DNA of 48,852 nucleotides. Source: an uncultured bacterium. Its GTDB lineage: Bacteria > Acidobacteriota > Thermoanaerobaculia > Multivoradales > JAHZIX01. Each line of letters starts with the position of its first letter. Within the stretch, counting starts at the first letter, position 1. The DNA is taken from contig CBDUPA010000031.1 of assembly GCA_965368975.1 (NCBI GenBank), positions 1 to 48,852 on the forward strand, written 5' to 3'. The position numbers and the translations under genes are program-made. This document shows, in pieces, positions 1,829-10,377 of this stretch. The notes under the pieces are model-generated. The model was not told the origin of the DNA, did no database searches, and saw nothing but the letters and a program-made list of their open reading frames with translations.

Positions 1829-2434
1829 TCACATCCGCACTCCATCTTCCGGCTCCCCCCACTTCTCGACGCCATAACGCCAGAGTCGCAGTCCGTGCGG
1901 CCAGGCGTCAGCAGGTAGATCGGCTTTCTGCTTGAGCCGTGCCAGGAATTCGCCGGGACGCGGGAACATGTCCCAGACTTGCGGCAGGAAGGTACCGCGA
2001 TGTCCACCCGCTTCCAAAACCAGACCGTCGACGGCCGGACGCAGGAGCTGTACCACCTCGTCCTCGCGCACGGCAGGCAGAGATTCCAGCGGTGACAGTA
2101 AGGAAACCTCCACGCGCGTGTGGTCCAGCTCACCGGAACTCATGGGTGGGAAGCGCGGATCCTCGAAGGCCGCGGCCCGCGCGTTGCGGCACACGTCTTC
2201 GCGCAGCGGTCGATGCGCTTCGATGGTACCGATGCAGCCGCGCAGCCGCCGTGCCTCCTCGGGCGTGTCCTGCGTCAGCGTGACGAAGGTCGCTGCCGGT
2301 GCCGCCAGCCAAACGACCTCGTCCGCACTCAGGTCGAGTGACGGTAGCGGCCGTCCCGGGTTCAGGTTGGAGATCAGGGTACTGCGCGCCAGAGCCAGTA
2401 GGATTTCGCCCTGGCGTGCTGGGGTTGGGGTCAC
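1829..2434 (-). CDS. amrA: AmmeMemoRadiSam system protein A (AMMECR1 family)
   Basis: Motifs ATFVTL..LRGCIG, AAFEDPRFPP, VEVSLLS, DGLVL..GTFLPQVW, LKQKA. GTG at 2434 overlaps the upstream TGA and has AAGGAG upstream. Confidence 0.92.
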   Translation of the reverse strand: MTPTPARQGEILLALARSTLISNLNPGRPLPSLDLSADEVVWLAAPAATFVTLTQDTPEEARRLRGCIGTIEAHRPLREDVCRNARAAAFEDPRFPPMSSGELDHTRVEVSLLSPLESLPAVREDEVVQLLRPAVDGLVLEAGGHRGTFLPQVWDMFPRPGEFLARLKQKADLPADAWPHGLRLWRYGVEKWGEPEDGVRM

Positions 2435-3282
2435 GAAGAAGCTCCTTGGAAGGCGGCAGCTCGGAACGAGACAGCCGCGTACCCTACGACCTGCTCGCGG
2501 TCGCCGTAGGTATCGCCTGAGTTGCGCAGATCGAGCAAGTGCGGCTCGAAACCATGCCGGTGCGCCCACGTCAGCGCGCCGTTGAGGGCATAGGCACCAC
2601 AGGCCTGGCGTGGGTGCAAGTCGTGGTCGAAAGCCAGGATCGCGTCGACGGTGGCGCGGTCGGTCCGGCAGGCCTCGTCATATGGCAGGAAGTGCGACAG
2701 GTCCGTGCTGACCACCACGCGGAGTTCCGGATCGACGCGCCATGCCGCCTCGAGCACCGCCGCCACCTGCTCAGGATCGGCCCAGCCGACGACTAGCGGC
2801 AACAGGGTGAAGGCATCGCCCCACAGTACCTGCAGGAACGGTAGCTCAACTTCCAGTGAGTGCTCCTGCACGTGCGCCGGATCCTCGACCAGCACGCCGG
2901 GCAAGTCGCGCACCGCCGCGACCAATCCGGCATCCAGCTGGACGCGGCCGAGCGGAGTGTCGAAGGCCTTGGCGGACGGCAGCGCGATACCGTAGAAACG
3001 GTGATAGTGCGACGGGCCGATCACCACGACACGCTGTCGCGAGTCCGATGCTGGCTGCGCCATACCGACCGAGCCCCAAGCAGCGAAAGCACTGCCAGCG
3101 ATCGGCCCCGAGAAGTCGTAGCCGGCATGCGGAGCGATCAGCATCGGTGCCGGGCGAGGTTCGGCCCCATGCTCGTGCAAGAGGCCCTCGCGCAAGAAAC
3201 CTTCGACTTGCTGCCGCAGCGCAGCCGCATCGCCAGTGTAGAAGCGCCCGGCGACGGCCGGCGGGCGAACGGTAGTACCCAT
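2431..3282 (-). CDS. amrB: AmmeMemoRadiSam system protein B (MEMO1 family)
   Basis: Motifs RPPAVAGRFY, IAPHAGYDFSG, GPSH, TPLG, EHSLEVELPFLQ, STDLSH, ACG, VVGYA. Confidence 0.94.
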   Translation of the reverse strand: MGTTVRPPAVAGRFYTGDAAALRQQVEGFLREGLLHEHGAEPRPAPMLIAPHAGYDFSGPIAGSAFAAWGSVGMAQPASDSRQRVVVIGPSHYHRFYGIALPSAKAFDTPLGRVQLDAGLVAAVRDLPGVLVEDPAHVQEHSLEVELPFLQVLWGDAFTLLPLVVGWADPEQVAAVLEAAWRVDPELRVVVSTDLSHFLPYDEACRTDRATVDAILAFDHDLHPRQACGAYALNGALTWAHRHGFEPHLLDLRNSGDTYGDREQVVGYAAVSFRAAAFQGASS

Positions 3283-3325: not shown

Positions 3326-4882
3326 CTATTCGACACCGCCCATCAGTTTCTTGACGAATGGGCTGATCATCAACATCACGACACCGAAGCCGGCGGTCGT
3401 CATGGCCACGGAACCGAACAGCTGCGGCAGCGGCAGGTTCTCGAACTGACCACCGATCAAGCCGCCGACCAGATTGCCCAGCGCCGTACCCATGAACCAG
3501 ATCCCCATCATCTGCCCCACGTAGCGCCGCGGTGCCAGCTTGGTCATCGACGACAGACCCACCGGACTCAAACACAACTCTCCAGTAGTGTGGAGGAAGT
3601 ACGTGACCACCAGCCACATCGGACTGACCAGGTTGCCTTGCTGAGCCTGCATGGCGCCCCAAGCGATAACGGCGAACCCGGCACCGAGCTGGATCAAGCC
3701 GAGCGCGAACTTGGCTGGAGTCGACGGCTGACGCTTGCCGAGCCAGATCCACAGATAGCCGAACAGCGGCGCCAGCAGGATGATGAACAGTGGGTTGATG
3801 CTCTGGTAGTAGCTGGCCGGTACGTCCCAGCCCAGAACGTTGTTGTCGGTGTTGTGTTCGGCGAACAGGTTGAGCGAAGAACCCGCCTGCTCGAAGCCGG
3901 ACCAGAAAAGCGCGGCTCCCACGAACAGCACCGCAATCACCGCCATGCGTTTCTTCTCCGGCCCAGTGAGGCCGCCGAAGAGCGCGATGCCGAGGATGTA
4001 ACCAAGACCGAGCAGTCCCATGCTGACGCCCAAGCCATAGGCGACGTTCTTCAGCGTCAAGGTGTAGGTGCCCGCCAGGCTCAGCCCCCAAGCGGCTGCA
4101 GCCAAGACCCCGACCACCAGGGTCACGTTGACGATCATGCGCTTGGCCTTCGTCAACTCTGCCGGCGTCGTCTGTGCCTCGCTCAGCTCACCAGCACCCT
4201 GGAGGTGACGCGTCCCGAGCACGTACTGAATCAGCCCCAGGACCATGCCGACACCAGCGGCGGCGAAGCCGTAGTGCCAGTTGCCCTCGACGGAAATACC
4301 GAGGAAAGCGATCTCGAAGCCCTGGCCAAGGCCGCCGCAGATGAGGGGACCAGCGAAAGCACCGATGTTGATACCGCTGTAGAACACCGAGAAGCCAGCG
4401 TCACGACGGGCTGCCAAACGGCTGCGTTCTTCTGCGGGCGTCTCGTCGCCGTCCTCGGCCATCGGGTAGAGATCGCCGACGATGGCACTGACGTTGGGCT
4501 TGAGCAGACCGGTTCCGATGACGATCAGGATCAGGCCGCCAAAGAAAGAAGCAGTGCTCTCGATCGCCATGCTGAAGTGACCAGCAGCGATGATGATGCC
4601 GCCAATCAACACCGCCCGCCGTTGCCCGATCAGGCGATCGGCGATCCAGCCACCGGGCAAAGCCAACAGGTACACGAAGCCGGTGTACAGCCCATAGATG
4701 GCGCCGGCCGTCTCGGCATCCAGACCCATCCCTGGGTTCTCGCCCGCCACCGCCGCGGTCATGTAGAGAATGAGCAGGGCGCGCATGCCGTAGTAGCTGA
4801 GGCGCTCCCACATCTCGGTGAAGAAGAGCGTAGACAGGCCCACGGGATGCCCGGGAAAGAAACGGGTGAACAGGTTCTGCAT
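3326..4882 (-). CDS. POT/PTR family proton-dependent oligopeptide MFS transporter
   Basis: EMWERLSYYGMR (ExxER motif), GGWIADRLIG, GTGLLKPN, FYSGINIG, ELCLSPVGLS. Start placed at MQNLF (4882). Confidence 0.95.
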   Translation of the reverse strand: MQNLFTRFFPGHPVGLSTLFFTEMWERLSYYGMRALLILYMTAAVAGENPGMGLDAETAGAIYGLYTGFVYLLALPGGWIADRLIGQRRAVLIGGIIIAAGHFSMAIESTASFFGGLILIVIGTGLLKPNVSAIVGDLYPMAEDGDETPAEERSRLAARRDAGFSVFYSGINIGAFAGPLICGGLGQGFEIAFLGISVEGNWHYGFAAAGVGMVLGLIQYVLGTRHLQGAGELSEAQTTPAELTKAKRMIVNVTLVVGVLAAAAWGLSLAGTYTLTLKNVAYGLGVSMGLLGLGYILGIALFGGLTGPEKKRMAVIAVLFVGAALFWSGFEQAGSSLNLFAEHNTDNNVLGWDVPASYYQSINPLFIILLAPLFGYLWIWLGKRQPSTPAKFALGLIQLGAGFAVIAWGAMQAQQGNLVSPMWLVVTYFLHTTGELCLSPVGLSSMTKLAPRRYVGQMMGIWFMGTALGNLVGGLIGGQFENLPLPQLFGSVAMTTAGFGVVMLMISPFVKKLMGGVE

Positions 4883-5072
4883 GTGTCGGTCTCCGTCGGG
4901 GTGCGATTTCCGGCTGAGCAAGTCAACCGAGCAAAGGCGGTCGATCCTGGGACCAGTCCGGCGGCCGGACCGGCGATATCGTGCTTCGAGTCCGTTGGTT
5001 AGAACGCGCGTAGGATACCTCAAATATTCCGGCGTCCCTAACCCTGGCAGGGGAACGACTTAAAGCATGCCG

Positions 5073-5081: not shown

Positions 5082-5149
5082 TGAACGTTCGGTGATCAAG
5101 AGAAAGCTCGGCCTTGGACCGAGTTCACGCCGAGAGGAAACTGAGTGCG

Positions 5150-6175
5150 ATGCCCCGCAAGGACCAACTCAAGAGGAAGCTGCTACGGCAGGCGGTGCGC
5201 GAGGACCTGGAGACTCGCGGCGGCCTGGTGCCGCGCCGGTTGCGTCGCGGCTACCGTTGGCGGCGCGTCGGTCTGCGCGTCGGCGTCGCGGCGCTGGTCC
5301 TGCTGCTGCTCGGTGGATCCGCCTGGCTACTCACCGAGGTGATGGCCGGGCCGGACGAGATGCTGGTAGTCACGCAGCTGATCGAGACGCCGGCAGCGAT
5401 GAGTACCGACGGTGCCGCGGCGACCACGGTCCTGCCACCCGAGATGCTGCCGGTACCGGGCGGCGTCGACCCTTCGATGCTCAGCCTGGGTGTGCGCCGG
5501 ATCATCCTCGATCCTGGTCACGGCGGCGTCAACGTCGGCACGGTGGCCCCCGGTGGCCTGCAAGAGAAAGAGATCACCCTCGACGTCGGCCTGCGCCTGC
5601 GCGAGCTACTGGTCGAGGGCGGCTTCGACGTGCGCATGACACGCGAGACCGACGAGGTCGTGGACCTCGACGCACGCACTCACTTCGCCAACCAGGAGAC
5701 CGGTGACATTTTCGTCTCGATCCATGTCAACTGGCTGGAAACGCGCAACGTGCGGGGTGTCGAGACCTACTACCTGGGCCCCACCAATGACCCCTACCTG
5801 CGGCGCATCGCGGCCGCCGAGAATCGCGGCTCCAGCTATTCGCTGGCCGATTTTCGCAATCTGATGGACACACTCTACGCTGGCGTGCGCCAGGAAGAGT
5901 CGCGTGCCCTGGCCGAGGCCATGCAACGCCGTCTGTTCCGCTCGCTGCGTCAACTCAACCCCCAATTGCGCGACCGAGGGGTCAAGACGGCACCTTTTGT
6001 GGTATTGCTGTCTACCGAAATGCCGGCTGTACTCGTCGAGGTCGCGGCTTTGTCCAATCGTGAGGAGGCGCAGTTGCTGTCCAAACCCTTTTATCGTCAG
6101 TTCATCGCACAGGCCCTGTTCGAAGGCATTCGCGCCTACGCGGAAAGCCTGGTTGCAACCGAGGAGACTTCATGA
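5150..6175 (+). CDS. Membrane-anchored N-acetylmuramoyl-L-alanine amidase (Amidase_3)
   Basis: IILDPGHGG, EKEITLDV, MTRETD, FVSIHVN, MPAVLVEV, so zinc and catalytic residues are present. Basic N-terminus followed by one hydrophobic helix. Confidence 0.93.
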   Translation: MPRKDQLKRKLLRQAVREDLETRGGLVPRRLRRGYRWRRVGLRVGVAALVLLLLGGSAWLLTEVMAGPDEMLVVTQLIETPAAMSTDGAAATTVLPPEMLPVPGGVDPSMLSLGVRRIILDPGHGGVNVGTVAPGGLQEKEITLDVGLRLRELLVEGGFDVRMTRETDEVVDLDARTHFANQETGDIFVSIHVNWLETRNVRGVETYYLGPTNDPYLRRIAAAENRGSSYSLADFRNLMDTLYAGVRQEESRALAEAMQRRLFRSLRQLNPQLRDRGVKTAPFVVLLSTEMPAVLVEVAALSNREEAQLLSKPFYRQFIAQALFEGIRAYAESLVATEETS

Positions 6176-7221
6176 GCGGCAACAACGTGAAGGAGCAAAG
6201 CGCCGGCGTCTTGCACGTGGGCATCGATCTGGGCACGTCCCGCAGTTCGGTGTCCGCGTCCAACAACGAGCGCCATGTCATCGACAGCTACGTCGGCTGG
6301 CCGGTCGACATGGTGGCGCGCAAAGTGCTCAAGCGGGAAGTATTGGTGGGCCGTGACGCCCTCGACAACCGTCCGATGCTCGACCTTCATCGCCCACTGG
6401 AACACGGCCTGATCAAGGAAGGCTCCGAGCGCGACGAGCAAGCCGTGCGCGAGCTTCTGCGCCACCTGCTGGTGCTCGCCGGCGTCACGCCGGACACGCG
6501 CAAGAGCTTGCAGGTGCGGGCGGTGGTCGGCGTACCGGCCGAAGCGATGCGCTACAACAAACAGAGCGTACGCGACGCGATCCGTGGCCTGGTCGACAGC
6601 CTGATGATCGTCTCCGAGCCGTTCGCCGTCGCCTACGGCATCGACGAGCTGGTGCACTCGATGATCATCGACTCCGGCGCCGGTAGCACCGACTTCTGCG
6701 TCTTGAGCGGCCGCTACCCCACCGAGAAAGAGCAGCGCACGCTGACCAACGCCGGTGATTGGGTCGACCAACAGCTCTCGACTCTACTGACCGAAAAGCA
6801 CCCGGAAGCCACCTTCTCGATCCATATGGTCCGCGAGTGGAAAGAAAGCTTCGGCTTCGTCGGGGAAGCCAAGGAACCCGTGCTCGTGACCATGCCGGTC
6901 GAGGGCAAGCCGACGGAGATCGACATCACCGCCGAGATGCGCGCCGCCTGTGAGGGGTTGATCCCACCCCTCGCCGAGACCATGGTCGACTTGTTGAGCC
7001 GCATTGAGCCCGAGTACCAGGCCCGCGTGCGTCAGAACATTGTCCTCTCCGGCGGCACCGCCCTGATCCAAGGTCTCGGCGGCAAGCTACAGCAGAACCT
7101 CACCGATGTCGGCGGCGGCCGGGTGCGCGTGGTCAAGGACCCGATCTACGTGGGTTCCGACGGTGCGCTGGCGATCGCACTGGATGCGGGCGAGGCGGAT
7201 TGGGAGAAGCTCACAGAGTAG
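6172..7221 (+). CDS. MamK-like bacterial actin (MreB/MamK superfamily)
   Basis: GIDLGTS (phosphate 1), VVGVPA, VSEPFAVAYG, IIDSGAGSTD (phosphate 2), AGDWVD, NIVLSGG (adenosine). Length 349 aa and many segments match MamK as I recall it better than MreB. Confidence 0.88.
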   Translation: MSGNNVKEQSAGVLHVGIDLGTSRSSVSASNNERHVIDSYVGWPVDMVARKVLKREVLVGRDALDNRPMLDLHRPLEHGLIKEGSERDEQAVRELLRHLLVLAGVTPDTRKSLQVRAVVGVPAEAMRYNKQSVRDAIRGLVDSLMIVSEPFAVAYGIDELVHSMIIDSGAGSTDFCVLSGRYPTEKEQRTLTNAGDWVDQQLSTLLTEKHPEATFSIHMVREWKESFGFVGEAKEPVLVTMPVEGKPTEIDITAEMRAACEGLIPPLAETMVDLLSRIEPEYQARVRQNIVLSGGTALIQGLGGKLQQNLTDVGGGRVRVVKDPIYVGSDGALAIALDAGEADWEKLTE

Positions 7222-7231
7222 AGAGAATATG

Positions 7232-7365
7232 GCTACAGGCCTACCCCTACCCAGATCTCGGATTCAGATCTCCGGGTAGGGGCATCCCCATGTGAGTGTC
7301 CTGAGCACGGGTTGGGAGACGCAGGCTATGAGAAGGGCTGCGGGGCCACCGAGCTCTCCCTACCC
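7232..7365. repeat. GTAG-type REP-like palindromic elements between convergent genes
   Basis: Inverted repeat cccctaccc-agatct...agatct-cc-gggtagggg at 7244-7282, gtaggggcatccccatgtgagtgtcc following it, and a further ccctaccc near 7358. Confidence 0.5.
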
Positions 7366-7377
7366 AGGCGGTTCAGG

Positions 7378-8022
7378 TCAGGTGTCCAGTTCTTCCTGCT
7401 GCCGCCGCTCCTTGAGCGCCGACCAGATCAACCAGCCGCCACCGAGCATCAGCAGCACCGGCCAGTTGCGCCGGAACACGTCCCAGTCGAAGAAGTTGTA
7501 CTCTTCGAGTAGCTGCAACAGGCCGAGCACGAAGATCACGAGGCCGGCGATCATGGTGCCGTTGCCGGGCTTGCCCGGTTTGGCCGCGTCCAGCATTCCC
7601 AGGTCGGCCGCGTAGCCGTGATTGATCAGGTTGGCCTGGCGGTAGGCGTCCAGGACGTTGAACATCCAGGTGAAGGCGATGGCAAAGCCGAAGATCGGTG
7701 AACCGGTCTCGTGCACCATCGCGATGCAGGCGCCGAAGATCAGGAACAGAACGACGCCGCGCTGGTACAGGCCATTGTAAATGTGCCCCATGCCCGGGAA
7801 GAAGGCGAGAAAGGCGGCCAGGGCCGGGCTCTTCTGATTCGGAGACCGGGGGGGTTCCGGGGAGTAGCCCGCCTGGTACGGCGGCGGCGCGTAGTGAGGT
7901 GGCGGCGGCGGACTGCTCGGCGCGCTGTTCGCCGGCTCTGCAGCCGTAGCGGTAGCCGATTCGCCTGCTGGAGGGGCAGGGTCGGAAGTGTTGGCAGTGT
8001 CACGGGTTTCTTCATCAGCCAT
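7378..8022 (-). CDS. Membrane protein with Pro-rich N-terminus, TM2-like segment and C-terminal LiaF/DUF5668-like domain
   Basis: KSPALAAFLAFFPGMGHIYNG; GLVIFVLGLLQLL...NWPVLLMLGGGWLI; AAGGAG before ATG 8022; third gene of the ECF operon. Confidence 0.7.
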   Translation of the reverse strand: MADEETRDTANTSDPAPPAGESATATAAEPANSAPSSPPPPPHYAPPPYQAGYSPEPPRSPNQKSPALAAFLAFFPGMGHIYNGLYQRGVVLFLIFGACIAMVHETGSPIFGFAIAFTWMFNVLDAYRQANLINHGYAADLGMLDAAKPGKPGNGTMIAGLVIFVLGLLQLLEEYNFFDWDVFRRNWPVLLMLGGGWLIWSALKERRQQEELDT

Positions 8023-8051
8023 GGGGTGCTCCTTATGGGGGAAATCCGAGG

Positions 8052-8990
8052 TCAGTCGTCGTTGGAATTCGAGTTGGTCGTCATCTCTGTCTGTGCATCT
8101 GTCTCTTCTTGGAAGACCGCATCTTCCGGGGAGACCGCCTCTTTTTGAGAGAGCAGTCCAAGCAACCACGAAGCCTGCCAGCGCTCCTCCCGAGCCCAGG
8201 TCTCGGGCGAAGTCCAGCCTGCCACCGCGGCACGGCAGCGCAGCGCCTCGACCCCGGCGGCCAGGTCTTCGGCCTCCTGCTGCCAGAGCTTGCTATAGCC
8301 ACCCAGCTCTTCGCGGCCACTCACCAGCACCGGCTGCACCTCGGTACTGATCTGGCGCACCACCTGGCTCCACCAGACCTCGGCACGGCTCCGCGTCTGC
8401 GTGACGGCACCGAGTACCGACGACTCGAGCCGCACCCGACTGCCCTCGGCGAAGGCCTGCGGGTCACCGATCCAGAGCTGCAGCGCAAGTGCCATCAGCA
8501 GGCTCGCCGCCAGTGCCCAGCGCGGCTCACGTAGGCTGCGCGGCAGTCTTTGCTGCTGGCGCGGCTTCTTGCGTGCCACGGCCGGCAGACGGAACACCAG
8601 GCGCGCCGGCAGTTCCAGACGCGGCAAGTGCACCGCTGCCTCTAGCGCTGCGACCACTGTCTGGCAGCGCGCACAGGCGTCGACGTGACGGTGCAGGGCA
8701 ACCATCTCCGACGACACTGGCTTGGGCGCTGGCCCGGCGCCGTCGGTTTCCAGCAACTCGTTCCAGCGTCGGTCGACGTCGCGGCACAGCACGATCTGCC
8801 GCGGCAAGGCGCGCAGCCGCTCCATCAGTGCCGCCGATGGCTCCAGCTCGGGCACGCCGGACCAAGCAGTAACGGCCTGTGGCCGGTCTATCCGAGGCGC
8901 GGGCTGTAACCACTCTCGAAAGGCTTGCCATGCCTGCCGTGGCAGGCGCCGCAGCGTTTCATGCATCGACAGTGCATCCGTTCGCTTCAT
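8052..8990 (-). CDS. Putative anti-sigma factor (zf-HC2-like HxxxCxxC plus TM helix)
   Basis: HVDACARC motif, hydrophobic WALAASLLMALALQLW, immediately downstream of the ECF sigma factor. Confidence 0.75.
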   Translation of the reverse strand: MKRTDALSMHETLRRLPRQAWQAFREWLQPAPRIDRPQAVTAWSGVPELEPSAALMERLRALPRQIVLCRDVDRRWNELLETDGAGPAPKPVSSEMVALHRHVDACARCQTVVAALEAAVHLPRLELPARLVFRLPAVARKKPRQQQRLPRSLREPRWALAASLLMALALQLWIGDPQAFAEGSRVRLESSVLGAVTQTRSRAEVWWSQVVRQISTEVQPVLVSGREELGGYSKLWQQEAEDLAAGVEALRCRAAVAGWTSPETWAREERWQASWLLGLLSQKEAVSPEDAVFQEETDAQTEMTTNSNSNDD

Positions 8991-8991
8991 G

Positions 8992-9618
8992 TCACACCTC
9001 CGCCAAGACCGCGCCGTCCAGCGGAGAGGCTCCGCCGTCCGCTGCCGTGGGTACCAGCCGCGCCGCCACGCGCTCGGCAAGCTCCCGGCGAGCCCGCGCC
9101 AGTCGCGACTTCAGCGTGCCCATCGGCACATCTTGGAAGGTGGCTACCTCTTCGTAGCTCCAGCCTTGTAGGTCGCGCAGCAGCACTGCCGTCGCCATGT
9201 CTTGGTTCATCTCTTCGAGCGCTCCGTACACCGCGCGCAGCCGCTGACGGCGCTGGGTACGAGCGTGCGGATCGTCGCCGCCCGGTAGTTGCTCCAGAAT
9301 CGCCTCGGGCACCCGTCGCGAGCGCGCCTCGAGTCGCGCCCGGCGGTAGCGCTCGATGCACAGGTTCTTGCTCAGCGTCAACGCCCAGGCGACCAACGGT
9401 ACCTTGCCGTGGTACTTCTCGAGATTCCGGTACAGCTTCATGAAGATCTCCTGGGTCAAGTCCTCGGCCTCCGCCGCATTGCCCGCGAACTGGAAGGCCA
9501 GGTTGTAGATCTTGCGGCCATACAGCCGGATCAACTCATCCCAAGCCGCCGCCTCGCCGTCCGCGGCGCGGCGGGCCAGATCGCTGTCGTGTTTTGGGTT
9601 CCAGGTCGACCTCATCAT
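8992..9618 (-). CDS. ECF RNA polymerase sigma-70 factor
   Basis: AEDLTQEIFMKLY (region 2); LRDLQGWSYEEVA...GTLKSRLARARREL (region 4). Confidence 0.95.
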   Translation of the reverse strand: MMRSTWNPKHDSDLARRAADGEAAAWDELIRLYGRKIYNLAFQFAGNAAEAEDLTQEIFMKLYRNLEKYHGKVPLVAWALTLSKNLCIERYRRARLEARSRRVPEAILEQLPGGDDPHARTQRRQRLRAVYGALEEMNQDMATAVLLRDLQGWSYEEVATFQDVPMGTLKSRLARARRELAERVAARLVPTAADGGASPLDGAVLAEV

Positions 9619-9633
9619 CTCTCCTCATTCAGC

Positions 9634-9661
9634 AAGACGAGACCTCACGAGAAAAGGTTCC
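9634..9661 (-). promoter_or_regulatory. ECF-type promoter GGAACC-N16-CGTCTT, probably autoregulatory
   Basis: Minus strand reads GGAACC ttttctcgtgaggtct CGTCTT just upstream of the RBS and start of the sigma gene; matches the AAC/CGT ECF consensus. Confidence 0.7.
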
Positions 9662-9719
9662 TTGGCAGCAGGAAGGACCCAGAACATCTGTTAGCTCATC
9701 GCGTAGCCGGAGAGGCACA

Positions 9720-9725
9720 TATAAT
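9720..9725 (+). promoter_or_regulatory. -10 box TATAAT, probably giving a leaderless or near-leaderless TA transcript
   Basis: Perfect TATAAT 9 nt before ATG 9735, with no SD between them. Confidence 0.55.
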
Positions 9726-9734
9726 GGTTCTGTC

Positions 9735-10043
9735 ATGTTGAACCTGAACCCCTTCTATCCCCAGATCTCAGCAGCCTGCCGGCACTTTCGAGTCAAGAAA
9801 CTCGAGCTCTTCGGCTCCGGCACACGGGAGGACTTCGGAAACGACAGTGATGTGGACTTCCTGGTCGAGTTCCACGATCTGGAAGGACCCGGGATCGCTG
9901 ACCGCTACTTCGGGTTGATCAACAGTCTGACGCAAACCTTACAGCGCCCTGTCGATCTCGTAGAGGTCAGCTCGATTCGAAATCCCTTTTTCCGCAAAGC
10001 GGTCAACGCCGGCAGAGAGCTAGTGTACGGCGATGGACCCTAG
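9735..10043 (+). CDS. Minimal nucleotidyltransferase antitoxin (MntA family)
   Basis: LFGSGTREDF..SDVDFLVEF (GSx10DxD), RPVDLV; about 102 aa; overlaps the HEPN gene. Confidence 0.92.
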   Translation: MLNLNPFYPQISAACRHFRVKKLELFGSGTREDFGNDSDVDFLVEFHDLEGPGIADRYFGLINSLTQTLQRPVDLVEVSSIRNPFFRKAVNAGRELVYGDGP

Positions 10044-10377
10044 AACCTATCTCCACGATATCCAGGAGTCTGCGGCTGAGATTCTTGAATTCACTGAAGG
10101 CATGTCGCTCGACGACTACCGTACGAACAAGCTTGTCCGTGCCGCTGTCGAACGGAAGTTCGAGATCATCGGCGAAGCCCTGAACCGCCTCAAGCGAACA
10201 GCCCCAGAGCATCTTGAGAAGATTCGCGAAACCGCTCAAATCATCGCCTTTCGCAACCTCCTGGCGCACGGCTATGACACCGTCTCGGATCCGATCGTCT
10301 GGGACATCGTGCAGCAGAAGCTACCCGCGCTGATCGAAGATGTTCGTATCCGGCTCGACGCCCAGGCAGTTGACTAG
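10033..10377 (+). CDS. HEPN/DUF86 ribonuclease toxin (HepT family)
   Basis: AVERKFEIIGEA; RNLLAHGY (Rx4HxY); VWDIV..LP.L. Confidence 0.93.
   Translation: MDPRTYLHDIQESAAEILEFTEGMSLDDYRTNKLVRAAVERKFEIIGEALNRLKRTAPEHLEKIRETAQIIAFRNLLAHGYDTVSDPIVWDIVQQKLPALIEDVRIRLDAQAVD

Follow-up and report, generated by a model that had tools for sequence, protein, structure and literature searches.

A conserved gene pair encoding a putatively bitopic cell-wall amidase and a MamK-family actin: a candidate filament-coupled cytoskeleton-to-cell-wall module

Positions 5150 to 7221 of a 48,852-nucleotide (nt) stretch of DNA from an uncultured bacterium of the Thermoanaerobaculia (Acidobacteriota; contig CBDUPA010000031.1), referred to below as the window, carry two adjacent genes that encode an N-acetylmuramoyl-L-alanine amidase and a MamK-family actin-like ATPase. 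The source genome comprises 7.1 Mb in 59 contigs and is 99% complete. The reading favoured here, to which a probability of roughly 0.6 is assigned, is that the two genes form a filament-coupled module connecting cytoskeleton and cell wall, in which the N-terminal tail of the amidase would dock on a groove of the actin. This reading draws on the observed anatomy of the two genes, the observed conservation of the pair and the observed conservation and exclusivity of the tail, together with a predicted membrane topology and a predicted docking. A link of this kind had been proposed from the sequence alone (the original prediction); every computational check run favoured and supported it, yet it is still a prediction.

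The amidase gene (5150–6175, + strand, stop codon included) reads from an ATG at 5150 to a TGA at 6173–6175 and encodes 341 residues; it is identified by its open reading frame (ORF), by the Pfam domain Amidase_3 and by its conserved pairing. An in-frame TTG at 5114 provides an alternative start; the N termini of homologues favour the ATG at 5150. The actin gene (6172–7221, + strand, stop codon included) reads from an ATG at 6172 to a TAG at 7219–7221, encodes 349 residues and is identified by NCBIfam models, a match in the Protein Data Bank and sequence motifs. Direct reading of the sequence confirmed that the amidase stop and the actin start share the tetranucleotide ATGA (6172–6175) and that a Shine-Dalgarno-like GAGGAG lies at 6161–6166, within the amidase ORF and 5 nt 5′ of the actin ATG. 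Together with the spacing observed in 87 distinct pairs, this overlap is consistent with translational coupling. Because the genes on both sides are encoded on the minus strand, the pair is bracketed by one divergent and one convergent gene, namely a POT-family transporter upstream (3326–5023) and a proline-rich protein with a LiaF-like transmembrane region downstream (7378–8169); the isolated two-gene unit described originally was thus recovered. No sigma-70-like promoter was found in a promoter scan of the stretch. A terminator scan returned two terminator-like sites, both on the opposite strand and no more than in shuffled sequences, and an inverted repeat at 7244–7283 was not called.

The original prediction had named a neighbourhood survey of homologues as a check, and the coupling proved to be conserved. 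Within the order, a close homologue of the actin (60–73% identity) was found in 40 of 41 genomes representing 12 families, the exception (G028) having an MreB-level match only, and the amidase lay directly upstream of the actin in 30 of the 30 loci fetched. A scan of one genome per species returned 247 relatives of the actin; the best 80 loci were inspected, and the amidase was upstream in all 80. When these overlapping sets were merged, same-strand pairs were present in 104 of 104 distinct loci, the amidase being cut by a contig or locus end in 13 of them. The pairing is therefore beyond chance. By record title, which reflects the submitters' bin labels, the 80 loci comprise ∼45 from Acidobacteriota (mostly Thermoanaerobaculia, with Holophagae and Terriglobia), 15 from Binatia, 11 from Methylomirabilota/Rokubacteria, four delta-type bins and single records labelled Eisenbacteria, Chloroflexota and Multivoradales. 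Close spacing is the rule: overlap occurs in 28 of 87 distinct pairs (in 22 of them by 4 nt, of the ATGA type) and 45 are separated by 0–10 nt, giving 73 that overlap or lie at most 10 nt apart, with 10 at 11–50 nt and four at more than 50 nt. Candidate amidase-actin fusions, suggested by open frames of up to 880 residues, were rejected because a stop lies between the two genes in every locus. Conservation does not extend to the flanks. The neighbours in the window match at most one of 70 loci, the largest other gene cluster is present in 15 of 71, and no third conserved gene was found around the pair among the 70–71 loci compared. In the window, neither a SPOR nor a PilZ-AMIN gene adjoins the pair.

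Co-occurrence was also evident in an even sample of 301 genomes from the phylum, the tallies for which include one genome (G088) that is flagged as unpublished and carries no weight in the conclusions. The actin was present in 24 genomes at E ≤ 1e-40, with an amidase match immediately upstream in all 24. Among the 150 amidase matches listed, those whose query alignment begins no later than residue 8, and so covers the tail, came from actin-positive genomes only; 58 weaker amidase matches from the sample lie outside these 150. Eight actin-negative genomes of the same class gave no amidase match at E ≤ 1e-40. Two divergent pairs, with actins 48–50% identical to that of the window, retain a recognizable tail motif, a transmembrane helix and the amidase. 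By contrast, in a sister clade of MamK-like actins (P0055-type, 38–47% identical), the amidase was found in none of 80 metagenome loci, 55 of which have at least 700 nt of upstream sequence. The tail motif was not found in these 80 loci (best score E 2.5), and the same model recovered 74 of 79 positive-control loci.

The amidase carries a single Pfam match, Amidase_3 (PF01520), at residues 118–328 (5501–6133), with an E value of 2.7e-48, a score of 164.7 bits against a threshold of 27 and coverage of profile positions 1–173 of 174; no AMIN or LysM domain was found in the 341-residue protein. His-124, Glu-139, His-192 and Glu-297, which we take to be the metal ligands and catalytic residue of the Amidase_3 family, are invariant in an alignment of 50 amidases. 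An AlphaFold2 (AF2) model built from a 50-sequence alignment had a mean predicted local distance difference test score (pLDDT) of 85.9, with the catalytic domain confident from residue 117, and its top Foldseek match was Escherichia coli AmiA (8c2o; E 3e-19, TM-score on the target 0.86). Residues ∼212–262 (5783–5935), which include the stretch AAAENRG..LADFRNLMDTL, form an insertion that aligns with the matching segment of AmiA (8c2o), Bartonella AmiB (3ne8) and AmiC (4bin). With the insertion-free enzymes CwlV, CwlD, LytH and AmiC2, the best aligned stretch ends at about residue 210 of the amidase. The intact domain, the AmiB/C-like insertion and the lack of targeting domains were thus as claimed at the outset.

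In the E. coli and Bartonella enzymes, a segment of this AmiA/B/C type occludes the active site, and its release requires a LytM factor. By analogy, the insertion is likely to be a regulatory (auto-inhibitory) segment, an assignment based on the structure-sequence alignments, on its conservation and on the helices modelled by AF2 at residues 215–224 and 232–242. Across 50 sequences, conservation reaches at least 90% at Asp-214, Pro-215, Leu-220, Ala-221, Glu-224, Asn-225, Ser-228, Leu-232, Asp-234, Leu-239, Tyr-243 and Arg-247, and Asn-225 is invariant. The protein remains below the NCBIfam equivalog cut-offs for AmiA (101.4 of 400 bits), AmiB (75.7 of 532) and AmiC (88.2 of 700), and the database names of its homologues are generically N-acetylmuramoyl-L-alanine amidase. 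Two other Amidase_3 proteins are encoded in the genome, of 539 and 684 residues with long N-terminal regions, the former being AmiB/C-like; eight loci encode Peptidase_M23/LytM domains, none of them beside the module.

The identification of the second gene as a MamK-like actin was upheld. Of the NCBIfam models, MamK (NF040964) scored best at 362.2 bits (363 bits in a search of the genome), below its cut-off of 400, and MreB scored 64.1 bits (cut-off 293). Among solved structures, the closest match was MamK (5jyg; E 9e-75 over residues 9–347), followed by BeeR (8r2n; 2.9e-42) and MreB (∼1e-7). BeeR proteins are characterized by a disordered N-terminal domain of ∼35 residues (PMC11929497); the actin core of the present protein begins at residue 14, and its score on the BeeR model (NF053558) is 211.3 bits against a cut-off of 530. 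The nucleotide-binding residues Asp-19, Gly-21, Thr-22, Glu-149, Asp-167, Gly-169, Ala-170, Gly-171, Asp-174, Gly-294 and Gly-295 are invariant in 50 aligned actins (mean column identity 73%), and Thr-172 is at least 90% conserved. Pfam reported actin-type domains only, and from its sequence the actin appears to have no evident membrane-binding element of its own. A search of 1.84 billion representative sequences returned 968 relatives at E ≤ 0.001, of which 181 reach E ≤ 1e-30; at 50% identity, only a few representatives are left for the amidase-linked actins. Ten neighbouring representatives scored 351–425 bits on the MamK model, three of them above the cut-off; on this range, the actin of the window falls at the margin of the NCBI cut-off, within a MamK-like subfamily that is broad. 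The genome contains a separate, weaker MamK-model match on another contig (C9), whose 340-residue product reads by eye as MreB, and a second match of ∼30% identity is present in all 41 relatives of the order. No magnetosome-cluster context was found for the actin, its neighbours being the POT transporter and the LiaF-like protein (the rest of the genome was not searched for magnetosome genes), and the lineages carrying the pair are not known as magnetotactic.

The element proposed to join the two proteins lies at the N terminus of the amidase. The very basic segment of ∼45 residues noted originally is borne out by a content of 16 Lys/Arg and four Asp/Glu in residues 1–45. It consists of a conserved helix at residues 3–23 (5156–5218), the predicted actin-docking element, followed by an Arg-rich juxtamembrane stretch at residues 24–45 (5219–5284) defined by residue composition and by a charge bias in 89 homologues. 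In the AF2 model, residues 3–23 are helical with pLDDT values of 81–87, and a second, continuous helix at residues 29–63 spans the hydrophobic segment. The tail helix is amphipathic and basic, and across phyla the first ∼25 residues follow the consensus RxKRRLLRxAVxENxxxI. In 50 sequences, position 8 is Lys in 47, position 16 is Val in 47 and position 19 is Asn in 49, the near-invariant polar positions being Glu/Asp-18 and Asn-19. A search of longer proteins with a profile of the tail and helix, in which scoring was limited to the 8000 candidates with the most shared words, gave 49 matches at E ≤ 0.01, of which 47 contain PF01520 and two are short fragments. Within the genome itself, the helix part of the profile matched this amidase only, with no second copy. 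A query with residues 1–70 of the single protein found only itself, a result of the word-index limit; the alignment-based search succeeded.

Docking of the tail was assessed by complex prediction with the actin and amidase residues 1–45, each represented by a 50-row alignment, in three runs with three unrelated partners as controls. The interaction prediction score from aligned errors (ipSAE) was 0.78, 0.77 and 0.77, compared with 0.00 for the best control, and the runs agreed in at least 85% of predicted contacts. On the tail, the contacts involve residues 4, 7–16, 18–20 and 22–23; on the actin, they involve residues 130–131, 134, 145–147, 151, 155, 158, 160–161, 180–182, 335, 338–339, 343 and 346–347. 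By homology with other actins, this predicted site corresponds to the groove between subdomains IA and IIA together with the C-terminal helix. One wall would be formed by residues 130–161 (6559–6654) and the other by the C-terminal helix at residues 335–347 (7174–7212), both assigned from predicted contacts and conservation. Conservation averages 0.89 at the actin contact positions, compared with 0.77 for the actin as a whole. Arg-134, Val-147, Phe-151, Tyr-155, Leu-160, Gly-180, Ala-339 and Leu-347 of the groove are invariant, positions 338 and 343 are Asp in 49 and 48 of the 50 actins, respectively, and the conserved acidic residues Asp/Glu-158, Asp-338 and Asp-343 face Lys or Arg residues of the tail in the predicted complex. 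A complex prediction had been suggested as a check by the original prediction, and its outcome supports docking of the tail onto the actin, as support rather than proof.

On this basis, the module may operate as follows. The amidase would be a type II (N-in) membrane protein in which a cytoplasmic tail of 45 residues leads into a single transmembrane helix and then, through a flexible linker in the periplasm, to the catalytic part. This part would be a zinc-dependent N-acetylmuramoyl-L-alanine amidase whose catalytic residues are intact and which carries an AmiA/B/C-type regulatory insertion; the insertion suggests that the enzyme is probably held inactive, to be released by an activator or by a change in conformation. 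The actin would be translated by coupling from the same mRNA, and as a cytoplasmic MamK-family protein with intact ATP-binding motifs, it would presumably polymerize. The amphipathic helix at the start of the tail would dock in the hydrophobic IA/IIA groove and so couple the amidase to the filament; the likeliest site would be a groove left exposed, for example at a filament end. Removal of peptidoglycan stem peptides would be restricted to places defined by the filament, and the filament would in turn obtain its sole evident anchor to membrane and wall. Here, we infer polymerization, auto-inhibition, spatial control and a physiological role in cell separation or cell shaping.

Several points weigh against this interpretation. 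Adjacency of genes is by itself no proof of physical contact, and a search for RNA data on the stretch gave none, returning only three metagenome DNA runs that share 6% of words. The docking score is the model's own confidence, and the pLDDT of the docked partner was low (at least 56, with values of 57–58). In calibration, 58 of 80 solved complexes and 2 of 110 mismatched pairs scored at or above the pass mark, counts that are valid only roughly here because the present predictions used their own alignments. The groove is a much-solved site for helices (ParR, arcadin-2, WH2 and thymosin), so the pass may partly mirror the model's familiarity with that motif. The groove residues may be conserved for polymerization alone. 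The tail of the window's own amidase has Asp at the near-invariant position Asn-19. Finally, the groove of crenactin serves a longitudinal filament contact (PMC5173319); by analogy, the tail helix may cap or sequester the actin rather than tether the amidase along the filament.

This last point underlies an explanation that is on balance unlikely, in which the tail mainly regulates or nucleates the actin instead of being a passive tether. Here, the groove helix would cap, nucleate or sequester, as ParR does at the ends of ParM filaments or as arcadin-2 does with crenactin, and the amidase domain, bound to peptidoglycan, would mainly hold filament ends at the wall; growing filaments could in that case drive amidase molecules apart or shift their position. 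The location of the predicted contacts (residues 130–161, 180–182 and the C-terminal helix 335–347) is in keeping with such a role. The crenactin groove holds the D-loop of the next filament subunit, an arcadin-2 helix bound there depolymerizes the filaments, and ParR binds the groove of ParM (PMC5173319). The actin, for which Pfam identified actin-type domains only, also lacks an evident membrane-binding element. Against this, the invariant catalytic residues and the conserved insertion show that amidase activity is under selection and that the enzyme does more than serve as an anchor. The explanation is compatible with the filament-coupled module and differs from it only in which partner controls which.

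A second explanation concerns the membrane topology of the amidase. Hydropathy, homologue heuristics and the AF2 model indicate a single hydrophobic helix at residues ∼46–67 (5285–5350), read as an N-in signal anchor, followed by a variable, low-confidence periplasmic linker at residues 68–117 (5351–5500), which has pLDDT values below 50 at residues 66–89 and differs in length and sequence among homologues. Topology was assessed by hydropathy, charge and motif counts in 89 distinct homologues. In the window's amidase, the best 19-residue hydrophobic window starts at residue 44 with a mean Kyte-Doolittle value of 2.16; in the homologues, the median start of this window is residue 43, the uncharged stretch is at least 15 residues long (median 23) with a mean hydrophobicity near 2.0, and the median net charge is +7 on the N-terminal side of the helix versus 0 after it. 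The evidence fits an uncleaved N-in signal anchor, short of proof. The alternative, that the N-terminal 67 residues are a long cleavable Sec or Tat signal releasing a soluble periplasmic amidase, with the pairing reflecting co-expression without contact, appears quite improbable. In its favour, 67 of 89 homologues carry a twin arginine just ahead of the hydrophobic helix, and 36 of 89 have an [AV]xA site after it, the window's protein among them with VMA|G. E. coli AmiA and AmiC are Tat substrates, and taken together with the twin arginine, this lends cleaved export some plausibility. However, the twin arginine is expected in so Arg-rich a stretch. None of the 89 homologues matches the strict Tat consensus, neither Pfam nor NCBIfam returned a Tat-signal model at E ≤ 0.01, and conservation does not extend to the cleavage-like site. 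An n-region of ∼43 residues with a helix conserved across phyla (Lys-8, Val-16 and Asn-19 at least 90%), limited to these amidases and to actin-positive genomes, would not be explained by a generic signal peptide, and the length and hydrophobicity of the uncharged stretch are typical of membrane anchors. The original prediction of one transmembrane helix without a clear cleavage site therefore stands with respect to the single hydrophobic helix and to the absence of a conserved cleavage site or Tat motif after the tail; it does not stand entirely for the window's own protein, in which VMA|G is a small-x-small site.

That the tail helix acts elsewhere, at the inner-membrane surface or on another cytoplasmic partner, with a purely functional link between actin and amidase, is similarly hard to credit: the helix is amphipathic and basic, as in membrane-surface helices, and its docking is a prediction, but the near-invariant polar positions Glu/Asp-18 and Asn-19 and the strict co-occurrence of tail and actin fit a specific partner encoded next door, and the unrelated-partner controls scored 0.00.

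The filament-coupled module, if correct, would provide a function for MamK-like actins of non-magnetotactic bacteria and a so-far undescribed steering of wall cleavage from inside the cell. These actins belong to the core gene set of entire acidobacterial orders and occur also in Binatota and Methylomirabilota, groups that are dominant in soil and barely cultured. More broadly, it is conceivable, if rather doubtful as a whole, that amidase-coupled MamK-family actins constitute a widespread and so far undescribed cytoskeletal system of major uncultured soil and sediment phyla, in which a membrane-tethered groove helix lets a dynamic filament transport or place an auto-inhibited amidase and wall cleavage is patterned from the cytoplasmic side, independently of MreB and the divisome. 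In such a scheme, the link may be ancestral, with other MamK-like actins, possibly including magnetosome MamK, recruited later; the module bears in this way on the origin of the magnetosome cytoskeleton.

The relationship between amidase-linked and other actins was examined in a quick maximum-likelihood tree of 62 rows, supported by Shimodaira-Hasegawa-like approximate likelihood ratio tests (SH-aLRT) only, constructed without named magnetosome MamK and with the 340-residue MreB of contig C9 as an outgroup on a very long branch. A five-letter motif taken from the 5jyg alignment had matched no representative. In the tree, the divergent amidase-linked pairs and the non-amidase representatives come out side by side, forming a single group with good support that is separate from the core. 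As judged from these sequences, just one gain or one loss of the amidase link would suffice, the root being unreliable. Rokubacteria/Methylomirabilota actins (L085, L102, L105 and L111 against L103, L084, L094, L110, L076 and L099) fall inside the acidobacterial group with an SH-aLRT value of 100, and bins labelled Eisenbacteria, Chloroflexota, Myxococcota and Thermodesulfobacteriota fall within the Binatia group. Such nesting across phyla could be the result of module transfer or of mislabelled bins; for the Rokubacteria/Methylomirabilota actins, the sequences hint at inter-phylum transfer.

In the sister clade (loci L126–L205), a related cluster of upstream ORFs was observed in 49 of 80 loci, an example of which resembles by eye a P-loop ATPase of the MinD/ParA/BY-kinase type; this may represent a different actin-partner module. 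At one of these loci (L198), a frame of ∼490 residues lies just upstream of a 39%-identical MamK-like actin (3371–4390) and has near its end a weak look-alike of the tail motif, which is not significant (E 2.7). MamK-like actin domains were also seen at the C terminus of representatives of 523–1232 residues (P0060, P0065, P0066, P0070, P0071, P0073–P0077 and P0081). The extensions of the five examined are rich in Glu, Lys, Ser, Pro and Ala, four of the five beginning with a similar coiled-coil-like stretch, and no Pfam match was found outside the actin part in the 10 long representatives scanned.

Other features of the window surround the gene pair. The inverted repeat at 7244–7283, listed for the + strand, lies between the convergent genes. 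The enclosing 86 nt (7215–7300) fold at −29.7 kcal/mol with a z score of −1.43 and without a U-tract; this hairpin 3′ of the actin gene is no better than those of shuffled sequences and is a weak, possible stem-loop. The convergent neighbour (7378–8169, − strand) encodes 263 residues with a proline-rich N-terminal half and a C-terminal LiaI-LiaF-like transmembrane region that scores 26.9 bits (cut-off 27), and no other locus that was examined has it beside the pair. At 1829–3282 on the minus strand, overlapping genes encode an AMMECR1-domain protein (1829–2569) and a Memo-like protein (2431–3282), which we take to be two parts of the AmmeMemoRadiSam trio. At 8052–9618 on the same strand, the gene for an extracytoplasmic function (ECF)-type sigma factor (8992–9618) overlaps the start of a 342-residue ORF without a Pfam match (8052–9080), possibly the anti-sigma factor of its ECF neighbour. 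A toxin-antitoxin-type pair is present at 9594–10377 (+ strand), where an MNT-like nucleotidyltransferase gene (9594–10043) overlaps that of a HepT-like HEPN ribonuclease (10033–10377).

The claim that the module is new agrees with literature searches of main texts, in which no paper among those listed describes an amidase-MamK-like actin module; in the search that combined the two proteins, no listed paper mentions both MamK and an amidase, and a search on MamK in the lineages concerned listed nothing relevant. The word “amidase” is absent from the BeeR paper and from the MamK-orthologue paper. The comparison suggests that the module is a cytoskeleton-tethered wall hydrolase, a principle already known, with an actin-amidase pairing for which no description was found. 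By analogy, its closest functional counterpart would be the bactofilin-LmdC system rather than RodZ-MreB. The bactofilin BacA and LmdC are described from Hyphomonas neptunium and Rhodospirillum rubrum, with the genes adjacent in 226 species (PMC10945521); residues 1–38 of LmdC bind the polymer with a dissociation constant of ∼15 μM via a conserved β-hairpin, as shown by biolayer interferometry and localization. The similarities are that the polymer gene adjoins the gene for a bitopic hydrolase, with adjacency across phyla, and that the hydrolase, as predicted here, joins a short cytoplasmic tail at its N terminus through a single transmembrane helix to a catalytic domain in the periplasm. The differences are that the presumed polymer here is an ATP-dependent MamK-family actin, unlike the nucleotide-independent bactofilin; that the enzyme is an Amidase_3 protein with an AmiA/B/C-type insertion, unlike the M23 endopeptidase LmdC; and that the tail element is an α-helix, predicted to lie in an actin groove, rather than a β-hairpin. 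The module would work like the bactofilin-LmdC type yet is no member of it, having actin and Amidase_3 instead of bactofilin and M23. If true, it would be an actin-based counterpart, in which a polymer in the cytoplasm keeps direct hold of a wall hydrolase across the membrane.

The predicted docking mode resembles those of ParR with ParM and arcadin-2 with crenactin, in which the protein encoded by a neighbouring gene inserts a short, conserved helix from its terminus into the IA/IIA groove (PMC5173319). Both of those partners are soluble, ParR binding DNA and arcadin-2 acting as a sequesterer; by contrast, the helix here would be tethered to the membrane and to a periplasmic enzyme, and its docking is predicted rather than solved. 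If true, this would be a further bacterial case of the hydrophobic-groove adaptor mode represented by ParR, arcadin-2 and eukaryotic actin binders.

With the E. coli division amidases AmiA/B/C (8c2o, 8c0j and 4bin) and Bartonella AmiB (3ne8), the amidase shares the catalytic fold, the insertion and the His/Glu/His/Glu set. The activators of AmiA/B/C are LytM factors, EnvC and NlpD, and the eight M23/LytM loci of the present genome could supply activators. Unlike AmiB and AmiC, the amidase has no AMIN domain, and unlike soluble AmiA/B/C, it reads as membrane-anchored, with targeting proposed to come from the cytoplasm. The actin has its nearest solved sequence relative in MamK (5jyg, 5ljv and 5ljw; NF040964), with which it shares length and nucleotide-binding motifs; it differs in scoring below the model cut-off, in having no magnetosome genes nearby and in having a wall amidase as its partner. 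The partners of MamK are MamJ and MamY.

The analogy with RodZ-MreB drawn in the original prediction holds in a general sense only, the docking mode resembling ParR-ParM and arcadin-2 and the function being nearest to bactofilin-LmdC. RodZ-MreB and FtsN-FtsA are cases in which bitopic proteins connect actin-family filaments to wall synthesis. As in these systems, the cytoplasmic N terminus of a bitopic protein would meet an actin-family polymer while its periplasmic part acts on or senses peptidoglycan. RodZ places a helix-turn-helix on subdomain IIA of MreB, FtsN has a SPOR domain, and neither has an enzyme domain. Unlike RodZ and FtsN, the bitopic protein here would itself be the hydrolase, in a genome that keeps a separate MreB, and unlike the helix-turn-helix of RodZ on MreB, the predicted contact is made by a single helix in the IA/IIA groove.

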